Of a DNA stretch of 64,000 bases, positions 10,152 to 61,438 are shown one piece after another (position 1 is the first letter of the stretch; the number at the start of each line of letters is the position of its first letter). The notes below the pieces were generated by a model that worked only from the letters and a program-made list of their open reading frames with translations, did not search any database and was not told where the DNA came from. This DNA is from Candidatus Levybacteria bacterium RIFCSPHIGHO2_01_FULL_37_17. Its GTDB lineage: Bacteria; Patescibacteriota; Microgenomatia; Levybacterales; UBA12049. The stretch spans positions 84,078-148,077 of the forward strand of contig MFNL01000001.1 in the NCBI GenBank assembly GCA_001782035.1, given 5' to 3'. Made by a program: the position numbers and the translations under genes.

Positions 10152-10640
10152 GTGAGAATACTAGGGATTGATCCCGGATTTGGAAGATGCGGATGGGCAA
10201 TTCTCGAAATTGCTGGTTCTAAGGCGGAAGCTATAGATTATGGTTGTATCGAAACAGGTTTAAAACTTGCTCCTGAAAAAAGACTAGAGCGGGTTTACGC
10301 CGAAATTTCAAGAATTATTAAAAAATATAAGCCCGAAGTTTTGGCTATCGAAGAACTATTTTTTGGTACAAACACAAAAACCGCACTCGCTGTAGGACAA
10401 GCCCGAGGAGTTGTTCTGCTTGCAGCATCGCAGTACAGTTTAGAAACAAGCGTATATAATCCTTTGCAGGTTAAAATTGCCCTAACAGGGTATGGAAAAG
10501 CGGAAAAAGCACAAGTTGGCCAAATGGTAAAAATATTGCTCAAACTAAAAGAAATGCCAAAACTGGATGATACAACAGATGCATTGGCAGTAGCCCTAAC
10601 TCATGCTTCAAGCTCAAAAATCAATAAGTTGTCTAGGTAG
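10152..10640 (+). CDS. ruvC: Holliday junction resolvase RuvC (GTG start)
   Basis: MRILGIDPGFGRCGWAILE. A TATAAT box lies 6 nt upstream of the start. Confidence 0.85.
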   Translation: MRILGIDPGFGRCGWAILEIAGSKAEAIDYGCIETGLKLAPEKRLERVYAEISRIIKKYKPEVLAIEELFFGTNTKTALAVGQARGVVLLAASQYSLETSVYNPLQVKIALTGYGKAEKAQVGQMVKILLKLKEMPKLDDTTDALAVALTHASSSKINKLSR

Positions 10641-10663
10641 CTTATGCTATAATCAGCTAAATT

Positions 10664-11236
10664 ATGATCGGTTTTTTAAATGGTAAAATTGACCTGCTAC
10701 AAAGGCCAAACGTAATTATCGATGTTAACGGAGTAGGTTACAAAGTTTTAGTTTCGGAAAACGTTTATAAAAACTTAACAGTTGGGCAGAAAATCAAGAT
10801 TTTTACCTACACCTATGTTAGGGATGATGCATTAGAGCTTTTCGGCTTTTTAGAAATTGACGATTTAAAGCTTTTTGAGAGTCTCTTAACAGTTTCTGGG
10901 ATTGGGCCTCGCACTGCACTAAATATATTCTCTTTCGGAGAAAGGCAAAATATAATTGAGGCTATTGTTAAAGGAGACTCATTATTTTTTACTTCGGTTC
11001 CAAGGCTTGGTACGAAAAATGCACAGAGAATAATAATAGAGCTTAAAAACAAAATGGGCGGAGACGGCCTGGTTGATTTATCAGGCAAAGATTTAATTGA
11101 GAATACAGAAGCTATCGAGGCTCTAAAAAACTTTGGATTCTCAGTGGTGGAAGCTCAAAAAGCATTAAGAAACTTAGAATCAGGTCTTTCGACTGAGGAA
11201 AAAATAAAACAAGCGCTTAAATCTCTTGGTAGATAA
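10664..11236 (+). CDS. ruvA: Holliday junction branch migration protein RuvA
   Basis: 190 aa with an OB domain followed by an HhH domain; between ruvC and ruvB. Confidence 0.8.
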
Positions 11237-11238
11237 AA

Positions 11239-12267
11239 ATGACAAAAGATAAAAAATCAAATTTGGAAAAAGAAACGCCTGAGGAAGAGGTTCTTTTTAC
11301 ATCTCTTCGAGCTTCCGCATGGCCTGAATTTTACGGCCAGAAAAACGTAAAACAAGCCCTTAATATTGCAATTTCTGCAGCAAAAAAAAGAAAAGAGCCA
11401 ATTGAGCATATTCTTTTATACGGGCCGCCCGGCCTTGGAAAAACTACATTATCGCACTTAATTGCAAAAGAAATGAATGTTAACATAAGGGTTACATCAG
11501 GCCCAGCAATTGAGCGGGCAGGTGATTTAGCCTCGATTCTTACGAATTTAGAAAAAGGTGATATTTTGTTCATCGATGAGGTTCATCGCCTTAATAAAAT
11601 TGTGGAGGAAACTCTTTACCCGGCAATGGAAGACTATGCGCTGGATATAATAATAGGTAAAGGACCTTCTGCAAGAACCCTGCGGCTTGATCTACCGCAA
11701 TTTACGATTATTGGCGCTACAACTCGAATTGGGCTTATGTCAGCCCCGCTGCGTGACAGATTCGGCGTAATCCACAGGCTGGCATTTTATGAGCCGGATG
11801 AGCTTTCGGAAATAATAAGAAAAGGAGCGATAAAGCTTAAAACAAAAGTAGATAAAGACTCAATTGCAGAAATTGCAACCAGAGCAAGGGGTACCCCAAG
11901 AATTGCCCTTAAATTACTCAAAAGAGTACGGGATTACGCACAAGTACATGGAACAGGTGAAATAGTAAAAGGCTTGACTGATAAAGCTTTAGAGATGCTT
12001 AACGTTGACTCTGTGGGGCTAGATAACAATGACGTAAGATATCTGAAATCAATTATTGAAAAACACGGTGGAGGACCTGTTGGAGTTGAAACTATAGCCT
12101 CCACAATAAGCGAAGATATAGGAACGATCGAGGAAGTAATAGAGCCCTATTTACTCCAAGTTGGATTTCTTAAAAAAACAGCACGAGGTAGAACAGCAAC
12201 ACTTGCAGCCTACAAACATTTGGGAATTGAGCTTCCCAAGGGCTTAAAACAGGGAAAACTCCTCTGA
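11239..12267 (+). CDS. ruvB: Holliday junction branch migration ATPase RuvB
   Basis: Walker [11 protein letters not shown], sensor motifs, 342 aa. Confidence 0.9.
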
Positions 12268-15292: not shown

Positions 15293-16825
15293 TCAGTATG
15301 CGGAATCTACCTGCGGACGGAATTGTAGGGCCTCGGCGATGTGTTGTATTTTAATATCAATTGAGCCTTCCAAGTCTGCAATAGTTCGGGCAAGTTTAAT
15401 TATCCTTTGGTAAGATCTTGCCGAAAGCTGCATTTTGGATACAGCCATTTTTAAAAGCTCAATACAGTCATCGGACAGCACGCAGTATTTTTTGATATCC
15501 TTGTTTAACATCTCAGCATTTGAGGAAATTTTTGTTGTCTTAAATCGTTTTGTCTGCAAATCCCTTGCTTTTTGAACCCTGTTTCTAATAGCTGTGGACG
15601 TCTCGTTATTTATTTTTTGAGAGGATGTTAACTTTTCAACTTTTACAGCGGGAACATCCAAATGAATATCTATCCTATCAAGCATCGGACCCGAAACTTT
15701 TTTTTGATACCGAATAATTTGTGCTGGCGCACAGCTGCAGTTGTGAGTTTTGTCGCCAAAATATCCGCAAGGGCAGGGATTTTGAGCCGCAAATAGCAAG
15801 AATTTGGAAGGAAACGTAAGTCTTTTACTTGCCCTTGAGATTGTCACAAAGCCGTCTTCCAAGGGCTGTCTTAGGGCTTCTAAAACGTGTCTTGGAAATT
15901 CTGGGAATTCATCCAAAAACAAAACTCCCCTATGCGCAAGTGAAACTTCGCCGGGTTTAGGGTTAGCGCTTCCTCCTATAAGTCCTATATGTGAAGTTGT
16001 GTGATGCGGGCTTCTAAATGGCCGCTTGGTTATTATAGGAGTTCCATCTAAAAGTCCGGAAATGCTATAAATTTTAGTAACCTCTAAAGCCTCATCTAGT
16101 GTCAATTTTGGCAAAATTGAGGGAAGAGTTCTCGCAAGAAGCGTTTTTCCAGCTCCCGGAGGCCCTTTTAAAATAATATTGTGTCCACCCGCAGCAGCAA
16201 TTTCCAATGCCCTTTTTGCCTGTTCTTGTCCGGCAACCTCACTCATATCAAAATCGAAACTTAACTTATTTTCAAATTTGTCTAAGCGTATGTATTTAGC
16301 GGGAACAATTTTTTCCTCATTTGTAATGTGTTTAACCAAAGAGAGCAAAGATTCAACGGGATAAACCTCGATACCATTAACAATTGCAGCTTCTTGGGAG
16401 TTAATTTTAGGCAAGAATATCTTATTTATTTTTCTCTCCTTCGCCATCAATACTTGGGGTAAAACTCCATTTGTGTATCTTAATTTTCCATCTAATGATA
16501 GCTCGCCAGTGAAGAATAAGTTCTCAATATTTGCTTCAATTTGCCCATCTGCAATAAGAAGACCCATTGCAATAGGCAAATCATATGAGGAACCTTCTTT
16601 GGGTAAATCAGCGGGAGCCAAATTAACAGTTATTCTTTTAGCGGGAAAATCAAACCCGGAGTTTTTAACAGCAGATCTTACCCTTTCTTTTGCTTCCTCA
16701 ACTGCCTTATCCGGAAGTCCAACTATAGTAAAAGAGGGAAGTCCCTGCGCTTGAATATCGACCTCTATTTCTATTGGAATGGCATCCAAGCCTAAAACCG
16801 CTGCAGATGTAACCTTTGCGATCAT
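15293..16825 (-). CDS. comM: YifB/ComM family Mg-chelatase-like AAA+ ATPase
   Basis: MIAKVTSAAVLGLDAIPIEIEVD N-terminus, GPPGAGKT Walker A, C-terminal Mg-chelatase ChlI-like region. Confidence 0.8.
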   Translation of the reverse strand: MIAKVTSAAVLGLDAIPIEIEVDIQAQGLPSFTIVGLPDKAVEEAKERVRSAVKNSGFDFPAKRITVNLAPADLPKEGSSYDLPIAMGLLIADGQIEANIENLFFTGELSLDGKLRYTNGVLPQVLMAKERKINKIFLPKINSQEAAIVNGIEVYPVESLLSLVKHITNEEKIVPAKYIRLDKFENKLSFDFDMSEVAGQEQAKRALEIAAAGGHNIILKGPPGAGKTLLARTLPSILPKLTLDEALEVTKIYSISGLLDGTPIITKRPFRSPHHTTSHIGLIGGSANPKPGEVSLAHRGVLFLDEFPEFPRHVLEALRQPLEDGFVTISRASKRLTFPSKFLLFAAQNPCPCGYFGDKTHNCSCAPAQIIRYQKKVSGPMLDRIDIHLDVPAVKVEKLTSSQKINNETSTAIRNRVQKARDLQTKRFKTTKISSNAEMLNKDIKKYCVLSDDCIELLKMAVSKMQLSARSYQRIIKLARTIADLEGSIDIKIQHIAEALQFRPQVDSAY

Positions 16826-18128: not shown

Positions 18129-18171
18129 GGCAGTATTTTAGCACTTTGAATTGTGCTAGAATAGAGCCCAA

Positions 18172-23122: not shown

Positions 23123-23172
23123 ATAAAAAAATATTTCATTTTTACTTTGACAAGGGGAGTATAATAATAAAA

Positions 23173-26236: not shown

Positions 26237-26365
26237 TTATTTTTTGTGTTTAAAATATTCTATTTGCCTAAGCCTTTTTTGAGCTTCTGCTTCTGTTTTA
26301 TATGTTCCCATATTTCTTCCGCTCTCAGCAACTACGCGGTATCCTTCCTTAACTTTTCTAATCAT
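26237..26365 (-). CDS. unannotated 42-aa ORF (MIRKVKEGYRVVAESGRNMGTYKTEAEAQKRLRQIEYFKHKK)
   Basis: Found by reading the reverse strand. Its stop lies 1 nt upstream of the DUF1428 ATG. The sequence is protein-like and not low-complexity. Confidence 0.35.
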   Translation of the reverse strand: MIRKVKEGYRVVAESGRNMGTYKTEAEAQKRLRQIEYFKHKK

Positions 26366-26436
26366 ACATATAAAACGTATAGAAGATCAATTAGTAATAA
26401 ATTTCATGGAGAGTTCTTTCGCTTTCTATTTGCTAG

Positions 26437-27336
26437 TTAATTTTTATCGATGACGTTTTTTGGTTTACCTGAGAAAAAAGCTTCTATATTTTGAAGAGCG
26501 ATTTCCCTGCTATTAGCCGAAGCTTGCTTGGTAGAAAATGCTATATGCGGAGTTACAAGTATTTTAGGATTGCTGAGTACTTTCTTATAGAACTCATTTT
26601 GAGTGTCTCCTGGAATTTCCGGATCTGTGTCAATTGCCGCTCCTTTTACTACCCCTTTATCAATAGCTTTAATCAAGCCGTCTAAATCATAAGTGTGCCT
26701 TCTAACAAAAGAGACAAAATAAACGCCCTTTTTAAGTGAATTAAAAAAATTTCCATCAAGCAGATTTTTACTTGATGAGCTGGTATTTAGACAATTTATA
26801 ATTAACTCGGCATCTAATGACTTTTCTTTTAAGTTTTCTCCTCTTCTAAAAAAATCTACTTTCATTCCAAATACCTTGAGCACATCTCCTAGCTTGGTTC
26901 CGATACTTCCAGCTCCCACTATTAAAGCTTTCTTGCCATTTAGGCTTTCCTTTAGCTCGAAATCAAATTCATCTTTGGTTCTTAATACTTGAGGAAACTT
27001 TCTGAAAAGTGCGATAGTCATAAAAACAACCCATTCAATAATTGAATCTCTATTGCTGCCTTGTGTGTTGGCGACTAAAACTCCATTTTTCCGGAGTTTT
27101 TCAGAATCAAATAGACCAAGCTCGATGTATGGATATGTGACAAAAACGTTTTTAAGCTTTGACAAGTTTTCTAGAAGAAAAGAACCATCACTTGCAACGA
27201 CATCTGCACCTTTTGCGAATTTGATAAATTTTTCGGAGGAAGAAGGGCTATCATAAGATTTAACATCACCGAGCTTTTTCAAGCGGGCTTTTTGTTCATT
27301 CGAAAAATTTACACCCAGCACAACTATCTTTTTCAT
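26437..27336 (-). CDS. D-isomer-specific 2-hydroxyacid dehydrogenase family protein
   Basis: NAD-binding GAGSIGTKLG with a catalytic His/Glu/Arg region; 299 aa. Confidence 0.75.
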   Translation of the reverse strand: MKKIVVLGVNFSNEQKARLKKLGDVKSYDSPSSSEKFIKFAKGADVVASDGSFLLENLSKLKNVFVTYPYIELGLFDSEKLRKNGVLVANTQGSNRDSIIEWVVFMTIALFRKFPQVLRTKDEFDFELKESLNGKKALIVGAGSIGTKLGDVLKVFGMKVDFFRRGENLKEKSLDAELIINCLNTSSSSKNLLDGNFFNSLKKGVYFVSFVRRHTYDLDGLIKAIDKGVVKGAAIDTDPEIPGDTQNEFYKKVLSNPKILVTPHIAFSTKQASANSREIALQNIEAFFSGKPKNVIDKN

Positions 27337-27347
27337 TTGGGTAGATT

Positions 27348-27533
27348 CTAACTCTTTTGCTTTCTATTTGCCATCTCTTCCTGTAGTTTGTTTGAGAACT
27401 GATCTTTTCCTCTTTCAAAAGCTTGTTTTCTTGATTCTAAAACTGGATTCTCTCTTACTATTTCATACTCAGGCATTCCCTCATCTGTTGCTCGTTCTTG
27501 ATCTAATAAATCTCGTTCCCTTTCGTTTTCCAC
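27348..27533 (-). CDS. small highly charged helical protein (GTG start)
   Basis: 61 aa. A TATAAT box lies 6 nt upstream of the GTG. The 3' end overlaps the conserved upstream element of the next gene. Confidence 0.3.
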   Translation of the reverse strand: MENERERDLLDQERATDEGMPEYEIVRENPVLESRKQAFERGKDQFSNKLQEEMANRKQKS

Positions 27534-27552
27534 GCAGCAATTATAGCAGAAG

Positions 27553-27930
27553 TTATTTTACTTTTAAGATGGAAAGGATATTTCCTGCTGGGTCTTTAAA
27601 CCAGGCGATTTCCTGTCCCCATTCTCTGGATATTCCTTTTTCGTCTGTTTTAAAATCGGGGTATTGCTCAAAGACTACTCCTTTTTCGGTTAGCTCATCA
27701 ACCGCTTTCTCAACGTCTGAAACTGCAAAGTTAAGAACAGTGTAAGCTGCAGGCTCATGATTTTCTTTTGTATAAATCATAACTTTTCCTCCACCTGCAA
27801 ATTTAAGCATCAGCATTCCCATTTCTGTATCCTCCTCCACGTTTAATCCAAGAGTTTCTCCATAGAATTCTTTAGCTTTTACTAAATCGCTTACCGAAAA
27901 ACTTGAAAACGCGTGCGAAGATTTAAACAT
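27553..27930 (-). CDS. VOC/glyoxalase family protein
   Basis: 125-aa glyoxalase-like fold ([24 protein letters not shown]...). Confidence 0.6.
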
Positions 27931-27979
27931 ACACCTATTATAGCAGATGAGAAATTTTGCCTTCTATTTGCCAGAGGGT

Positions 27980-28588
27980 TTAAGCTTCGATGACCTGGTT
28001 TTTAGTATCTTGTACCAAGACCGCCTGTTGATCAGTTATGGGAATAATATTGTATTTTTTCCCATACTCTTTAATTACCTTATCATGCAGGGTGGAGTAT
28101 TTAGCATTTTTGAAATGTGGCAAGGTGACAAAATTTACTAATCCAAAACCAGTGGTAGACTCCAAATTTGCTTCATCTGGATCATCAAAGTCTTTAACAG
28201 CTTCTATATCCGGTCCAGCAATTACGGATCCGGCACTCGAGCCTATATAAACTACTCCCCGATCAAGTAATTGTCTGATGAGTTTATCAAAGCCACTTTT
28301 TCGGCATTTCTCAAGCAAATAAAAAGTATTCCCACCGGCAACGAAGATTAAATTGACATTTGATAAAATTTTTTTGAGATCTTCTTCGTTTTTATTCTTC
28401 AAATCCAGATCAAAAACATTAAATCCAAGCTCGACTAGCTTATTTCTATCATCATCCATCCAAGGCCTTTCTTTATATAAATCTGCAGCAGTAGGAATAA
28501 AAGCTACTGATAAGTTCTCTGGTTTATCTTTTAGAAGCGGTATTAATCTATGTAGAACGTTATATGCTTGTGAAGTTAAAAACAGCAT
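27980..28588 (-). CDS. peptidase S51 (dipeptidase E-like), class I glutamine amidotransferase-like fold
   Basis: 202 aa. VAFIPTAADLY and GGNTFYLL plus Ser nucleophile region IGSSAGSVIAG. Confidence 0.65.
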   Translation of the reverse strand: MLFLTSQAYNVLHRLIPLLKDKPENLSVAFIPTAADLYKERPWMDDDRNKLVELGFNVFDLDLKNKNEEDLKKILSNVNLIFVAGGNTFYLLEKCRKSGFDKLIRQLLDRGVVYIGSSAGSVIAGPDIEAVKDFDDPDEANLESTTGFGLVNFVTLPHFKNAKYSTLHDKVIKEYGKKYNIIPITDQQAVLVQDTKNQVIEA

Positions 28589-28613
28589 GGGAAAATTTTA
28601 CTCCTTTTGCCTT

Positions 28614-28979
28614 CTATTTGCTAGAAGCTTCTGATTCGTTGATAAATCTTATATGTTCTTCGTTTTTTGGGTTAAATGCTGGAGTTGTTGTCAAAACCAT
28701 TTTCATTTTTCCAAAATAATGAATTCTAGTTTTTGGAGGAATTGCCAATATATCGGTTGGCTGTACTTCCACTTTTTCACCGTTTAGAAAAAATGTTCCT
28801 TTCCCTTCGATTATGTAATAAATGTACCAGCTTTTTTTATCTAAAAATTCCTGAAAATGACCTTTTTCTAAAGAAACATAAACTACGTTTGCAGATTTTA
28901 TATTTGTCGGATAAACAGTTAAATCTATTCCGTGTTTGTTAATTTTTTTTGCTTCTTTTGCTGAATATTTATATTTCAT
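28614..28979 (-). CDS. cupin domain protein
   Basis: YIIEGKGTFFLNGEKVEVQPTDILAIPPKTRIHY double-stranded beta-helix motif. Confidence 0.6.
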   Translation of the reverse strand: MKYKYSAKEAKKINKHGIDLTVYPTNIKSANVVYVSLEKGHFQEFLDKKSWYIYYIIEGKGTFFLNGEKVEVQPTDILAIPPKTRIHYFGKMKMVLTTTPAFNPKNEEHIRFINESEASSK

Positions 28980-29006
28980 TAAAGAGATTATAGTTGATCT
29001 TGCCTT

Positions 29007-29396
29007 TTATTTGCCAGACTTTTCAGCAATAAGCTCTATTTCAATTAGCATTTTAGGATCAATTAATTGGTTAATTCCAACTAAAGTGCAGGCCGGTTTT
29101 GTTTGCTTAAAAGCTTCGCCAAATGCTTTATCGAATCCTTCAATTTGTGTAATATCAACCAAGTATGCTCTTACCAAAACTGTGTCTCCGATTTTAAATC
29201 CTTCTGAATTTACAACACTCGTAATTTTGCTAAAGATATTTTTTGATTGTGAATAAACATCGTCTCCAATTATTTCTCCTTTTTCGTCTTGACTTGTTGT
29301 TCCCGAAAAATAAATCCTCGTCTCATCAATTACGACAGCTCTTGAATAACCGACTCTTTCTTCAGATGGAGTATGTGTAGAAACTACTTTCCTCAT
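29007..29396 (-). CDS. RidA/YjgF family reactive intermediate deaminase
   Basis: 129 aa. RAVVIDETRIYFSGTTSQDEKGEIIG...ACTLVGI...IEIELIA pattern. Confidence 0.75.
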   Translation of the reverse strand: MRKVVSTHTPSEERVGYSRAVVIDETRIYFSGTTSQDEKGEIIGDDVYSQSKNIFSKITSVVNSEGFKIGDTVLVRAYLVDITQIEGFDKAFGEAFKQTKPACTLVGINQLIDPKMLIEIELIAEKSGK

Positions 29397-29415
29397 TTTG
29401 GGGCAATTATAGCAG

Positions 29416-30162: not shown

Positions 30163-30213
30163 TTAAGATAAGTACTGTATACACTTTTGCATAATTCTTG
30201 TCAATTGGGGCAA

Positions 30214-31281
30214 TTATAGCACCTCGGAAAGCCTCTCCTTATAAAAATTAACAGCGTTTGTTACTGCAGCTGACCAGCCTGATGGCAAAAGATTGTGGCC
30301 TGCATTTGGATAAGTAAAGTAAGTAACATCAATTTTATTTTTTTCTAAAGCTTCAACTAATTCATCCGACCACCAGTAGGGAACTTCCTGGTCATCCAAC
30401 CCTTGGCTTATTAAAATTGGCGCTTTAATCCATTTATAGTATTTCTCGGGAGAAAAAAGCTCGACGTCGTAAAGATTTTCAAAACTTGCAAGAGCTTCTC
30501 TTAACTGTTTTCCCTGGTCATCATATTCGTCGGTGTAATAAAGAATTGAATAAGGAAAAGATTTTGAAACCGGCGCCCATAAGACAGTAGGATAATTTTT
30601 CCCGGAGACTGCAAGTGTAGAAAGCGCAATATGGCCACCATTACTGTGTCCCCAGATTCCTATCCTTTGTAAATCTGCCGAAATAGTCCCTTTATAGTTT
30701 GATTCTAGGCCTTGGTTCAAAGTTGTTAAAGAGGATAAGAGAGTAAGAGCAGTTGTGTATGTTTGAAATCTTCCCTCAAACGAATCGCCCGATTTATCAG
30801 ACTCTCCAAAGTCCAAAAAATCAGGAGCAAGCGTTATAAAACCGGCTCGGGAAAGAACCGTGGCAGATGGTTGAGTGCCCGCCCCAGGTTTATAAACATC
30901 ATTTGGAATAAATCCTCTAAACATTACAATAACCGGATATTCACCTTCTTCTTTTGGAATATTGGCAAGCCCTGATACTTTTAGCATCTCTTTACTATTA
31001 GGCGCTTTGGGAACGTAAAAATAAAATACTTGTTGAAATGAATTTTCATTCTCGCTTATGACACCCCCAAGTCTTATTTGGTTTTGAGGGAATTGAGTCT
31101 TTCTTAAATTTTCAAATGCGTAGGCAAGGAGAGGCCGGGGTATAGGCAACTCTTCGACTATGTTTTGCTTGAACCATTGATTTTGAAAAATGTATAATGA
31201 TTCCAGAGCGACGATGATTAACAAAACCACACAAAATAATCCGAGTACTCTTTTCACGAGCCAATTGTAGCAAATTTGCAA
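30214..31281 (-). CDS. secreted alpha/beta hydrolase (esterase/peptidase fold); likely start is GTG ~31254
   Basis: GHSNGG nucleophile elbow and a signal-peptide-like N-terminus. The track start is a TTG. Confidence 0.65.
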   Translation of the reverse strand: MQICYNWLVKRVLGLFCVVLLIIVALESLYIFQNQWFKQNIVEELPIPRPLLAYAFENLRKTQFPQNQIRLGGVISENENSFQQVFYFYVPKAPNSKEMLKVSGLANIPKEEGEYPVIVMFRGFIPNDVYKPGAGTQPSATVLSRAGFITLAPDFLDFGESDKSGDSFEGRFQTYTTALTLLSSLTTLNQGLESNYKGTISADLQRIGIWGHSNGGHIALSTLAVSGKNYPTVLWAPVSKSFPYSILYYTDEYDDQGKQLREALASFENLYDVELFSPEKYYKWIKAPILISQGLDDQEVPYWWSDELVEALEKNKIDVTYFTYPNAGHNLLPSGWSAAVTNAVNFYKERLSEVL

Positions 31282-40691: not shown

Positions 40692-40964
40692 TTAATTATT
40701 TTTCTTAAATACTTGCATTATTTCCCTGATTGCCTCGTCTTTCTTACCTTTTGAGATCTGGTTTGCAACGCACTTTTTTAAATGGTTTTCTAGAAGAAGA
40801 TTTCCAGTTTCCTTAAGTCCTGATTCTATTGCCTGTATTTGATGCATTATATCTATGCAATAAGCATCTTCATCCATCATTTTGATAACCTTATCAAGAT
40901 GTCCGCGCCCAATCTTTAAGCGATGTGTTACTCTTTCGTGTGTATCACGTGGTCTATATGCCAT
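40692..40964 (-). CDS. csoR: CsoR/RcnR family metal-sensing transcriptional repressor
   Basis: 90 aa. Helical DUF156 pattern with the conserved Cys (YCIDIMHQ) and a His/Cys C-terminal region. Confidence 0.8.
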   Translation of the reverse strand: MAYRPRDTHERVTHRLKIGRGHLDKVIKMMDEDAYCIDIMHQIQAIESGLKETGNLLLENHLKKCVANQISKGKKDEAIREIMQVFKKNN

Positions 40965-40985
40965 ATATCCCCCCTATGGGGATAT
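40965..40985. promoter_or_regulatory. perfect inverted repeat ATATCCCC-CCTAT-GGGGATAT abutting the csoR start; candidate CsoR operator
   Basis: 8-bp arms read directly, with a GC-rich core like known CsoR boxes. TTGACA and a TACCAT -10-like box lie just upstream on the coding strand. Confidence 0.65.
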
Positions 40986-41041
40986 GGTAGCATCTTGAAT
41001 AAACTCCTGTCAAGAGAAGGTGCCTCGGCACTAAAAAGCGG

Positions 41042-61399: not shown

Positions 61400-61438
61400 G
61401 CGGGTATTTTAGCATGTTATACTGTATAAAACAATATT

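Follow-up and report, generated by a model that had tools for sequence, protein, structure and literature searches.

A 21-nt element repeated between accessory genes of a Levybacteria genome: a proposed stop-and-promoter junction with a possible part in single-gene cassette exchange

In a 64-kb stretch of genomic DNA (hereafter the window) from Candidatus Levybacteria bacterium RIFCSPHIGHO2_01_FULL_37_17, an uncultured groundwater member of the Candidate Phyla Radiation (CPR; Microgenomates) from the Rifle aquifer, a 21-nt element was found at successive boundaries of an array of small genes. In our best-supported reading, which we hold to be about as likely as not, this element is a portable junction that combines a stop with a promoter; it would mark the exchange of single-gene cassettes in Levybacteria-type CPR genomes and probably also mediate it. 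The reading is built on direct observations, namely the anatomy of the element, its link to stop codons, the relation between its spacing and the promoter type, its recurrence between unrelated genes and one indel with a breakpoint at the element. Members of the CPR (Patescibacteria) have tiny genomes with few recognised mobile elements, and for this reason the acquisition of accessory genes in these bacteria is poorly understood. In the scheme that we propose, CTGGCAAATAGAAGGCAAAAG would be the conserved core of a portable module that joins single-gene accessory cassettes. The module would close the upstream open reading frame (ORF), by TAG in frame 3 and by TAG or TAA in frame 1 within the following -10, and would provide the upstream half of a sigma-70 promoter, with CTGGCA placed 18 nt from a -10 without TGn; the -10 hexamer and a leaderless ATG would come after the module core. 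Since copies of the same sequence, at least 21 nt long, are found in direct orientation at one gene boundary after another and also in different genomes, the element could double as a recombination point at which single ORFs would be gained, lost or replaced, the likeliest mechanism being short-homology recombination by RecA/RuvABC after DNA uptake.

A pattern search of the window with up to three mismatches returned exactly five copies, all on the minus strand, where 0.53 were expected, and five copies were reached in none of 100 shuffled sequences. These five co-oriented copies (E1 to E5) and one half-copy lie within 2.8 kb, with none elsewhere in the window, and the 10-mer core GCAAATAGAA occurs five times, on the minus strand only and always inside 26258-28621. 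E1 (28997..29017, minus strand, as are all array features below; CTGGCAAATAAAAGGCAAGAT, with the 18-nt core GGCAAATAAAAGGCAAGA at 28998-29015) forms the junction between the RidA and cupin genes, and its own TAA (29007-29009) is the RidA stop. E2 (28604..28624; CTAGCAAATAGAAGGCAAAAG, core AGCAAATAGAAGGCAAAA at 28605-28622) lies between the cupin and peptidase S51 genes and contributes the cupin stop by its own TAG (28614-28616). E3 (27954..27974; CTGGCAAATAGAAGGCAAAAT, core GGCAAATAGAAGGCAAAA at 27955-27972) is the consensus copy and separates the peptidase S51 gene, which stops 8 nt upstream, from the VOC gene. E4 (27354..27374; ATGGCAAATAGAAAGCAAAAG, core GGCAAATAGAAAGCAAAA at 27355-27372) joins an ORF of 61 amino acids (aa) to the 2-hydroxyacid dehydrogenase gene. 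E5 (26416..26436; CTAGCAAATAGAAAGCGAAAG, core AGCAAATAGAAAGCGAAA at 26417-26434) is a degenerate copy directly after the dehydrogenase stop; it has no -10 behind it, and the next ORF (42 aa, 26237..26365) starts 51 nt downstream. The half-copy (26258..26268; GGCAAATAGAA) comprises the left half only, within the 42-aa ORF, where it encodes ..RQIE...

The element had originally been predicted to be the operator of a regulon. The positions given for it then all check out, with a copy at every coordinate, and the gene identities (RidA, cupin, peptidase E, which is peptidase S51, VOC, 2-hydroxyacid dehydrogenase and DUF1428) were correct; the claim that at least five genes are preceded by it has to be reduced to four, E5 being followed only at 51 nt by the 42-aa ORF. 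The half-site placed upstream of DUF1428 does exist, but it sits inside the 42-aa ORF. The description of the element as a direct repeat of GGCAAA holds for the consensus and for E3, which is the only window copy with a perfect GGCAAA-N5-GGCAAA; the other copies are imperfect (E1 has GGC in both halves but ends in GGCAAG, the first repeat is AGC in E2 and E5, and the second half is AGC in E4 and E5), and the spacer is equally invariant. Family statistics were obtained from 16 distinct copies, taken from the window and eight other contig types. The conserved unit in these copies is a sharp-edged 21-nt block, in which the TAGAA "spacer" varies as little as the GGCAAA "half-sites", all 12 of the 12 substitutions are exchanges between G and A, and conservation runs 12 nt beyond the stop codon. 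The orientation of the element follows that of the genes strictly.

No inverted repeat or hairpin was found in the element, and the five window junctions, when folded, were no more stable than shuffled sequences (z from -0.96 to +1.85). A consensus scan of the window gave no terminator-like site at any junction, and an Rfam scan of the window gave no family other than one tRNA. A structured RNA or DNA (attC, repetitive extragenic palindrome or miniature inverted-repeat transposable element, terminator, riboswitch) was ruled out by the lack of structure, of a terminator-like site and of an Rfam family at the element. An island of foreign composition was ruled out as well, the GC content of the array (0.35-0.37) being equal to that of the genome (0.36), and so was a DNA uptake sequence, because the copies are limited to one 2.8-kb array and do not occur at about one per kb.

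The element is tied to the end of the upstream gene no less closely than to the start of the downstream gene. An upstream stop codon falls within 8 nt on either side of the element start in 14 of the 16 copies: the element's own TAG or TAA is that stop in seven, where the ORFs end in SGK, AGK or SSK, while in four the stop stands directly before CT plus the element and in three it lies 5-8 nt upstream. In the window, the RidA end GGC AAA TAA and the cupin end AGC AAA TAG are both inside the element, the dehydrogenase stop is 2 nt upstream of the E5 core, and the 61-aa ORF crosses E4 in another frame (frame 1) to stop at the TAG of the TAGAAT -10. This overlap or abutment of stop codons was overlooked in the earlier description. 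Seven ORFs ending in an element-encoded (S/A/S)(G/S)K and stop might speak for chance similarity or for a conserved C-terminal coding motif (..SGK and stop). However, element and ORFs stand in three different frame relationships, which rules out a coding motif; in seven copies the element follows the stop codon, in one it is read in another frame, and conservation continues 12 nt past the stop; chance is contradicted by the shuffled sequences. We regard this explanation as refuted, with a negligible probability left to it. The C-terminus of the window cupin reads ...ESE followed by ASSK and the stop, whereas the native end of its homologues is ...ESPYK. Among the 55 closest cupin homologues retrieved, the SSK end was present only in P0126, a 99%-identical variant of the window cupin, and SGK in none. 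By these comparisons, the element is not native to the genes that it touches.

To place the element in its promoter context, the upstream regions (70 nt each) of all 74 window ORFs obtained by crude gene calling were surveyed. Canonical promoters of this genome have the form TTGACA-N17-TATAAT, and many window genes are leaderless, with a (TGn)TAnAAT that ends 6-9 nt before the start codon. A -10 and a leaderless ATG follow each of E1 to E4, and the hexamers end 6-8 nt before the ATG, in agreement with the genome-wide pattern, so the -10 hexamers and leaderless starts that had been proposed for these copies are real. Behind E1, a TATAAT without TGn (28987..28992) comes 5 nt after the element and 7 nt before the cupin ATG (28979); behind E2, a TAAAAT also without TGn (28595..28600) comes 4 nt after the element and 6 nt before the peptidase S51 ATG (28588). 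E3 is followed after 12 nt by a TATAAT with a TGC extension (27937..27942), 6 nt before the VOC ATG (27930), and E4 after 4 nt by a TAGAAT (27345..27350), 8 nt before the dehydrogenase ATG (27336); at E4 a consensus scan reported ATGGCA-18-TAGAAT as a sigma-70-like promoter. The placement of the element where a -35 would be is thus supported, as it stands before genuine -10 hexamers and leaderless starts.

Taking the family together, 12 of the 16 copies have a -10 and an ATG downstream, at gaps of 4, 5, 8, 11 or 12 nt between element and hexamer. The gap is related to the promoter type: gaps of 4-5 nt go with the lack of TGn (7/7), and gaps of 8-12 nt with its presence (5/5). With the 4-nt gap, CTGGCA, which matches TTGACA at 4/6 positions, is set 18 nt from the -10. 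From this we infer that the 5' end of the element may act as a -35 for the weaker -10s and would be dispensable beside extended -10s. There is no downstream promoter at the second copy in the two-copy contig L043, at L093 or at window E5.

These promoter relations also bear on the possibility that a dedicated regulator, of the winged-helix response regulator or AraC/MarA type, binds two GGCAAA repeats phased by 11 bp and co-regulates the array, which we hold to be unlikely, although it deserves to be kept in mind. The direct-repeat consensus GGCAAA-N5-GGCAAA agrees with such an operator, and in 7/12 junctions the element covers the -35 at 4-5 nt from a -10 without TGn that would need help. Conservation over the full length and purine-only substitutions across contigs suggest recognition by a protein, and in so small a genome, with few regulators, a tight motif is conceivable; cassettes might also carry the operator along, in which case an operator is compatible with the junction model. 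The original regulon prediction is partly supported, in that the element is non-coding, runs with the genes and stands in the -35 position. But the sites of a regulon should be scattered and show graded conservation, whereas here the copies form one 2.8-kb array in the window, and the conserved spacer and sharp edges of the 21-mer are unlike collections of binding sites. The position relative to the core promoter is not fixed either: class III junctions shift the -10 distance by 7-8 bp, out of helical phase, and some copies have no downstream promoter. AGC stands in the first repeat in 2/5 window copies, and the cargo differs between loci and is unrelated. Conservation in relatives was checked too, and the homologous VOC and cupin genes in other Levybacteria were found to be without the element.

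No transcription factor was found in the 64-kb window except CsoR, encoded beside a copper ATPase, which bears out the original remark that no regulator is nearby and weighs against a dedicated operator. CsoR itself was ruled out as the protein that reads the element, for it has its own GC-rich palindrome upstream of csoR. Class II activator sites such as PhoB/OmpR boxes and AraC/MarA-type boxes resemble the element in the direct repeat, the 11-bp phasing, the -35 position and the lack of a good -35 hexamer; unlike them, the element is invariant over the whole 21-mer including the spacer, has a variable spacing to the -10 and some promoterless copies, and has no cognate regulator in the window. 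The original prediction was to fall if the motif turned out to be a piece of some mobile repeat and not to be tied to promoters. One part of this applies, as the element is repeated and apparently portable, and the other does not, as it is promoter-associated.

A sigma-54 (-24/-12) promoter was considered as well. In the family consensus TGGCAAATAGAAGGCA, counterparts of the TGGCA box at -24 and of the GC at -12 stand at the right spacing (TGGCA-N7-GCA, with GG and GC 12 nt apart, compared with TGGCAC-N5-TTGCA), and this arrangement is present in E1, E3, E4 and the family consensus. However, E2 and E5 have AG in place of the invariant GG, the -12 box is GGC or AGC and not TGC, and good sigma-70 -10 hexamers stand at leaderless distance, as they do at dozens of other genes; a sigma-54 start would leave a leader of 10-12 nt without a ribosome-binding site. 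Neither rpoN nor an enhancer-binding protein is encoded in the window, where Sigma54_activat was matched only weakly, by an AAA+ region of a ComM/Mg-chelatase-like protein. We consider a sigma-54 promoter highly improbable.

Searches beyond the window were made in species-representative genomes and in a metagenome collection. The former gave 32 single matches to the 19-mer pattern, which is about the chance expectation; four of them lie in CPR genomes, where they are singletons, and these share far more than the 19-mer. The metagenome collection added further members, so that the genuine family comprises, besides the window, L012, L026, L031 (identical to L044), L036 (identical to L041 and L074; three copies), L043 (identical to L046; two copies), L057 (identical to L093), L063 and L073, from two aquifers. 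The similarity spans element, -10 and start codon, though the downstream genes are unrelated: window E4 (gagttagaatctacccaaATG) and the second L036 copy, L036b (gagttagaatctccgtaaATG), are 85% identical over 41 nt, and window E2 (ggagtaaaattttcccATG) and L031 (ggagtaaaatttcctcATG) are 92% identical over 39 nt; L026 is without the promoter extension. Genes beside the element in the other contigs encode SnoaL-like, serine hydrolase, ParE toxin, isochorismatase and PNPOx-like proteins and two AAA_33 kinases.

Spread of the element across phyla was rejected, as there is reason to doubt the "Saccharibacteria" label of L036: a contig with a Levybacteria gene (geneA) encodes a serine hydrolase 78% identical to that of L036, and L036 also has a Levybacteria-type generic junction. 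A phage or plasmid origin was likewise rejected, no genuine matches having been found in viral contigs, phage records or plasmid records. The element sequence was not found in the literature searched, in which work on CPR integrons or cassettes is limited to resistome surveys. Twelve contigs (L042, L047, L052, L064, L065, L067, L069, L071, L076-L078 and L084) share a common sequence around an exact 19-mer match (..tttagcactttggctGGCAAATAGAAAGCAAAAacatgatgattcctagg..) that is unrelated to the family; they come from one sample series and represent a conserved locus of some abundant organism, outside the family. Exact 19-mer matches alone are therefore not diagnostic.

Comparison of related contigs provides the evidence on rearrangement. 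L043 has the order geneA, element, kinase, element, and the kinase end (ITSGK and stop) falls in the second element, while L057/L093 have geneA and the element and then unrelated DNA. The two types are 98% identical to 4 nt past the element, share nothing over about 1.5 kb, and are then 76% identical. In L031 a geneA homologue has no element behind it, and in L093 the right half of the element stands by itself, together with a promoter of class II, before the next gene. The L036 serine hydrolase, which lies between two elements, is 78% identical to a gene in L096 whose neighbours are different and whose junctions are generic; at the DNA level the two are homologous only within the ORF, from the ATG to the last codons. 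L119, a 590-nt contig from the same aquifer, matches the window across the RidA end, E1 and 300 nt of the cupin gene and then changes to a native cupin 3' end, with neither E2 nor pepE behind it. That recombination at the element itself, and not merely next to it, causes these rearrangements is an inference that we draw from them. The ruvC-ruvA-ruvB cluster and a ComM/Mg-chelatase-like gene, both present in the window (10152-12267 and 15293-16825), have recombination or transformation functions that could bear on how an exchange of cassettes through short homology might occur.

Several points weigh against this reading. Only one clean indel (L043 versus L057/L093) breaks exactly at the element, and its other breakpoint is not at an element; the breakpoints in L063/L031 and in L119 lie elsewhere. 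Where contigs from the window population cover the array from end to end, it is identical to that of the window, which means that exchange is not frequent, and arrays are stable within each population. The related contigs are mostly short metagenome fragments of uncertain taxonomy. The Fisher test on gap and TGn (p = 0.0013) has fewer than 12 independent events behind it, the copies amounting to about three junction classes related by descent, and CTGGCA matches the -35 consensus at only 4/6 positions (CTAGCA of E2 at 3/6). Finally, a model of promoter plus homology leaves two features unexplained, namely the identity of 15 spacer positions between contigs and the restriction of tolerated substitutions to purine transitions, and this suggests that a protein may read the whole 21-mer; this invariance over the whole length, together with the purine-only substitutions, is the main reason for keeping the hypothesis of protein recognition.

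Another explanation of the same contigs is that the element is an att-like site of an unrecognised CPR cassette-capture system, with an integron-like outcome, a short unstructured site and a recombinase encoded elsewhere in the genome. The sharp 21-nt boundaries, the near-identity between contigs and the behaviour of one gene plus one element as a unit (L043 versus L057/L093) would suit such a site, half-elements (window 26258-26268 and L093) are consistent with a central crossover, and the cargo (VOC, cupin, SnoaL, isochorismatase, toxin-antitoxin, small kinases) is similar to what is generally known from chromosomal integrons. If so, the site would also encode the upstream stop and part of a leaderless promoter, and a captured ORF would be expressed at once. 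But no site-specific recombinase or integrase was found within 10 kb on either side of the array, in the 64-kb window or in the related loci, the element has no inverted repeat or hairpin, and direct repeats are unusual for the core sites of tyrosine or serine recombinases. Moreover, arrays of relatives that are free of the element are equally modular, their single ORFs being linked by nothing more than the generic promoter junction; a special site is therefore unnecessary. We therefore give little credence to a capture site. Neither an operator function nor a dedicated recombination site excludes the junction reading.

The closest analogue of the element is the promoter-early stem-loop (PeSL) cassette of T4-type phages, a repeated composite motif that leads from the upstream stop to the downstream start by way of a sigma-70 promoter (Arbiol et al. 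2010, PMC2839356). In hyperplastic regions PeSLs stand on either side of single non-essential ORFs and mediate indels by recombination; their promoter activity and mini-circles have both been demonstrated by experiment (PMC2839356; Comeau et al. 2014, PMC4122927). The two motifs are alike in that they are short, repeated, composite and intergenic, reach from the upstream stop to the downstream start codon, include a sigma-70-type promoter and border single non-essential ORFs of variable regions. In both, close relatives differ by indels or replacements that break at the motif (in few cases here). In contrast to PeSLs, the element belongs to a cellular CPR genome and not to a phage, the window carrying housekeeping genes; it has no stem-loop terminator, its genes are leaderless without a Shine-Dalgarno sequence, it is one specific 21-mer where the PeSL has a consensus promoter, and it is known from sequence alone.

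Putative mobile promoters, defined by 50-100 nt of at least 80% identity (Matus-Garcia, Nijveen & van Passel 2012, PMC3488235), share with the element a closely similar upstream sequence before non-homologous genes within and between genomes. The modules described here are shorter than this definition (39-48 nt, with 85-92% identity), are arrayed at consecutive gene boundaries, overlap upstream stops and also occur without a downstream gene. Integron arrays have in common with the present array that small accessory genes stand singly and co-oriented, that each ORF ends at its 3' side in a repeated element, which sometimes holds the stop, that the types of cargo are similar and that gene content varies between relatives. 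They differ in that the element has no attC-like imperfect palindrome or hairpin and measures 21 nt, against roughly 55-140 nt for attC, that each array gene has its own -10 and leaderless start whereas integron cassettes are mostly promoterless and expressed from Pc, and that no IntI-type integrase is encoded in the 64-kb window or the related loci.

These comparisons suggest that the accessory genes of Levybacteria-type genomes are single-ORF modules joined by short stereotyped junctions consisting of a stop, a promoter and a leaderless start. If the junctions are exchange sites, they would correspond, in a cellular organism, to the PeSL mechanism of phages and would allow simple plug-and-play expression of horizontally acquired genes, for example the VOC gene of the window. 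The element may also serve as a sequence handle for following the flux of cassettes in groundwater metagenomes and for fishing any protein that reads it.

In several Levybacteria contigs, small genes that are unrelated to one another are repeatedly separated by a second stereotyped junction without the element, (C)TTCTGCTATAATTGCCCC(AA)ATG. This junction combines an extended -10 with a fixed "TGCCCC" discriminator and a leaderless start. In the window it was found on the minus strand at 29397-29415 (CTGCTATAATTGCCCCAAA, from the stop of the CopC-cupredoxin gene to the RidA ATG, of the element-free type known from related arrays), at 27534-27552 (CTTCTGCTATAATTGCTGC, from the VOC stop to the GTG of the 61-aa ORF) and at about 30180-30225; further sites are at 894-3001 in L096 and at 4319-4345 in L031 (reverse-complement coordinates). 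A relative of L031 and L043 has five small genes in a row that are linked by stop plus (C)TTCTGCTATAATTGCCCC(AA) plus ATG. Element-free Levybacteria arrays use stop plus (C)TTCTGCTATAATTGCCCC plus ATG, so that transcription does not in general depend on the element. In class III junctions (L012 and the first L036 copy, L036a) the generic junction comes after the element. VOC homologues in other Levybacteria stand in arrays without the element, where the junction is a stop, about 10 nt, TGnTATAAT, about 7 nt and ATG. A universal Levybacteria promoter feature was ruled out, as the element is missing from other Levybacteria arrays and from many window genes. The generic junction motif was also seen about 45 nt before the ATG of the CopC gene, which suggests a displaced or relic promoter. 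A further intergenic repeat, CCTGAGCG(C/G)AGTCGAAGGG, lies directly upstream of TATAAT after geneA homologues, at 900-925 and 4017-4042 in L096, at 4667-4692 in L031 (reverse-complement coordinates) and at about 355-395 in L063.

The genes of the array are all on the minus strand. The RidA/L-PSP gene (29007..29396; 129 aa, ending in ..EKSGK and stop) is the first of the element-linked genes and has the generic junction as its own promoter. It is followed by the cupin gene (28614..28979; 121 aa) between E1 and E2, the peptidase S51 (PepE-like) gene (27980..28588) between E2 and E3, and the VOC/glyoxalase gene (27553..27930) downstream of E3. The 61-aa ORF (27348..27533), with a GTG start and a generic-junction promoter, has no Pfam match and extends through E4, and the D-2-hydroxyacid dehydrogenase gene (26437..27336) lies between E4 and E5. 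The 42-aa ORF MIRKVKEGYRVVAESGRNMGTYKTEAEAQKRLRQIEYFKHKK (26237..26365), which holds the half-element, also has no Pfam match; both small ORFs are unannotated and are called as genes in public assemblies, the 42-aa ORF in all of them. The stop of the 42-aa ORF adjoins the DUF1428 start (TAAtATG), which suggests that the two are translationally coupled. The VOC protein is 62-76% identical to proteins annotated from non-CPR bacteria (Xanthomonadales, Flavobacterium, Streptomyces and Thermoanaerobaculia), and this similarity indicates a recent horizontal transfer of the gene between CPR and non-CPR bacteria.

Three public assemblies of the window population, L004, L005 (GCA_001782495.1 MFOU01000001) and L006, end at locus positions 11326-11730, inside the dehydrogenase gene (window 26437-27336) and just downstream of E4. 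Independent breaks of three assemblies inside one gene hint at strain heterogeneity. All ten dehydrogenase contexts retrieved (10/10) were syntenic, so the assembly breaks could not be tied to the element.

The part of the window from 0 to 18 kb was annotated by a Pfam scan. Housekeeping genes in the window include rpoD, dnaG, ruvABC and genes for a class I tRNA synthetase and ribosomal protein L25. The CsoR-family gene (40692..40964) has copper ATPase, HMA and DsbD-cupredoxin genes as neighbours, and directly before its start lies the GC-rich palindrome ATATCCCCATAGGGGGGATAT (40965-41000, minus strand), which is probably the CsoR operator. Divergent intergenic regions of about 40-50 nt with two back-to-back leaderless promoters were seen at 18129-18171, 23123-23172 and 61400-61438; an example of this arrangement, tgctagaat/gtgctaaaat between the adenylosuccinate synthetase and dnaG genes, shows how compact the promoters of this genome are.

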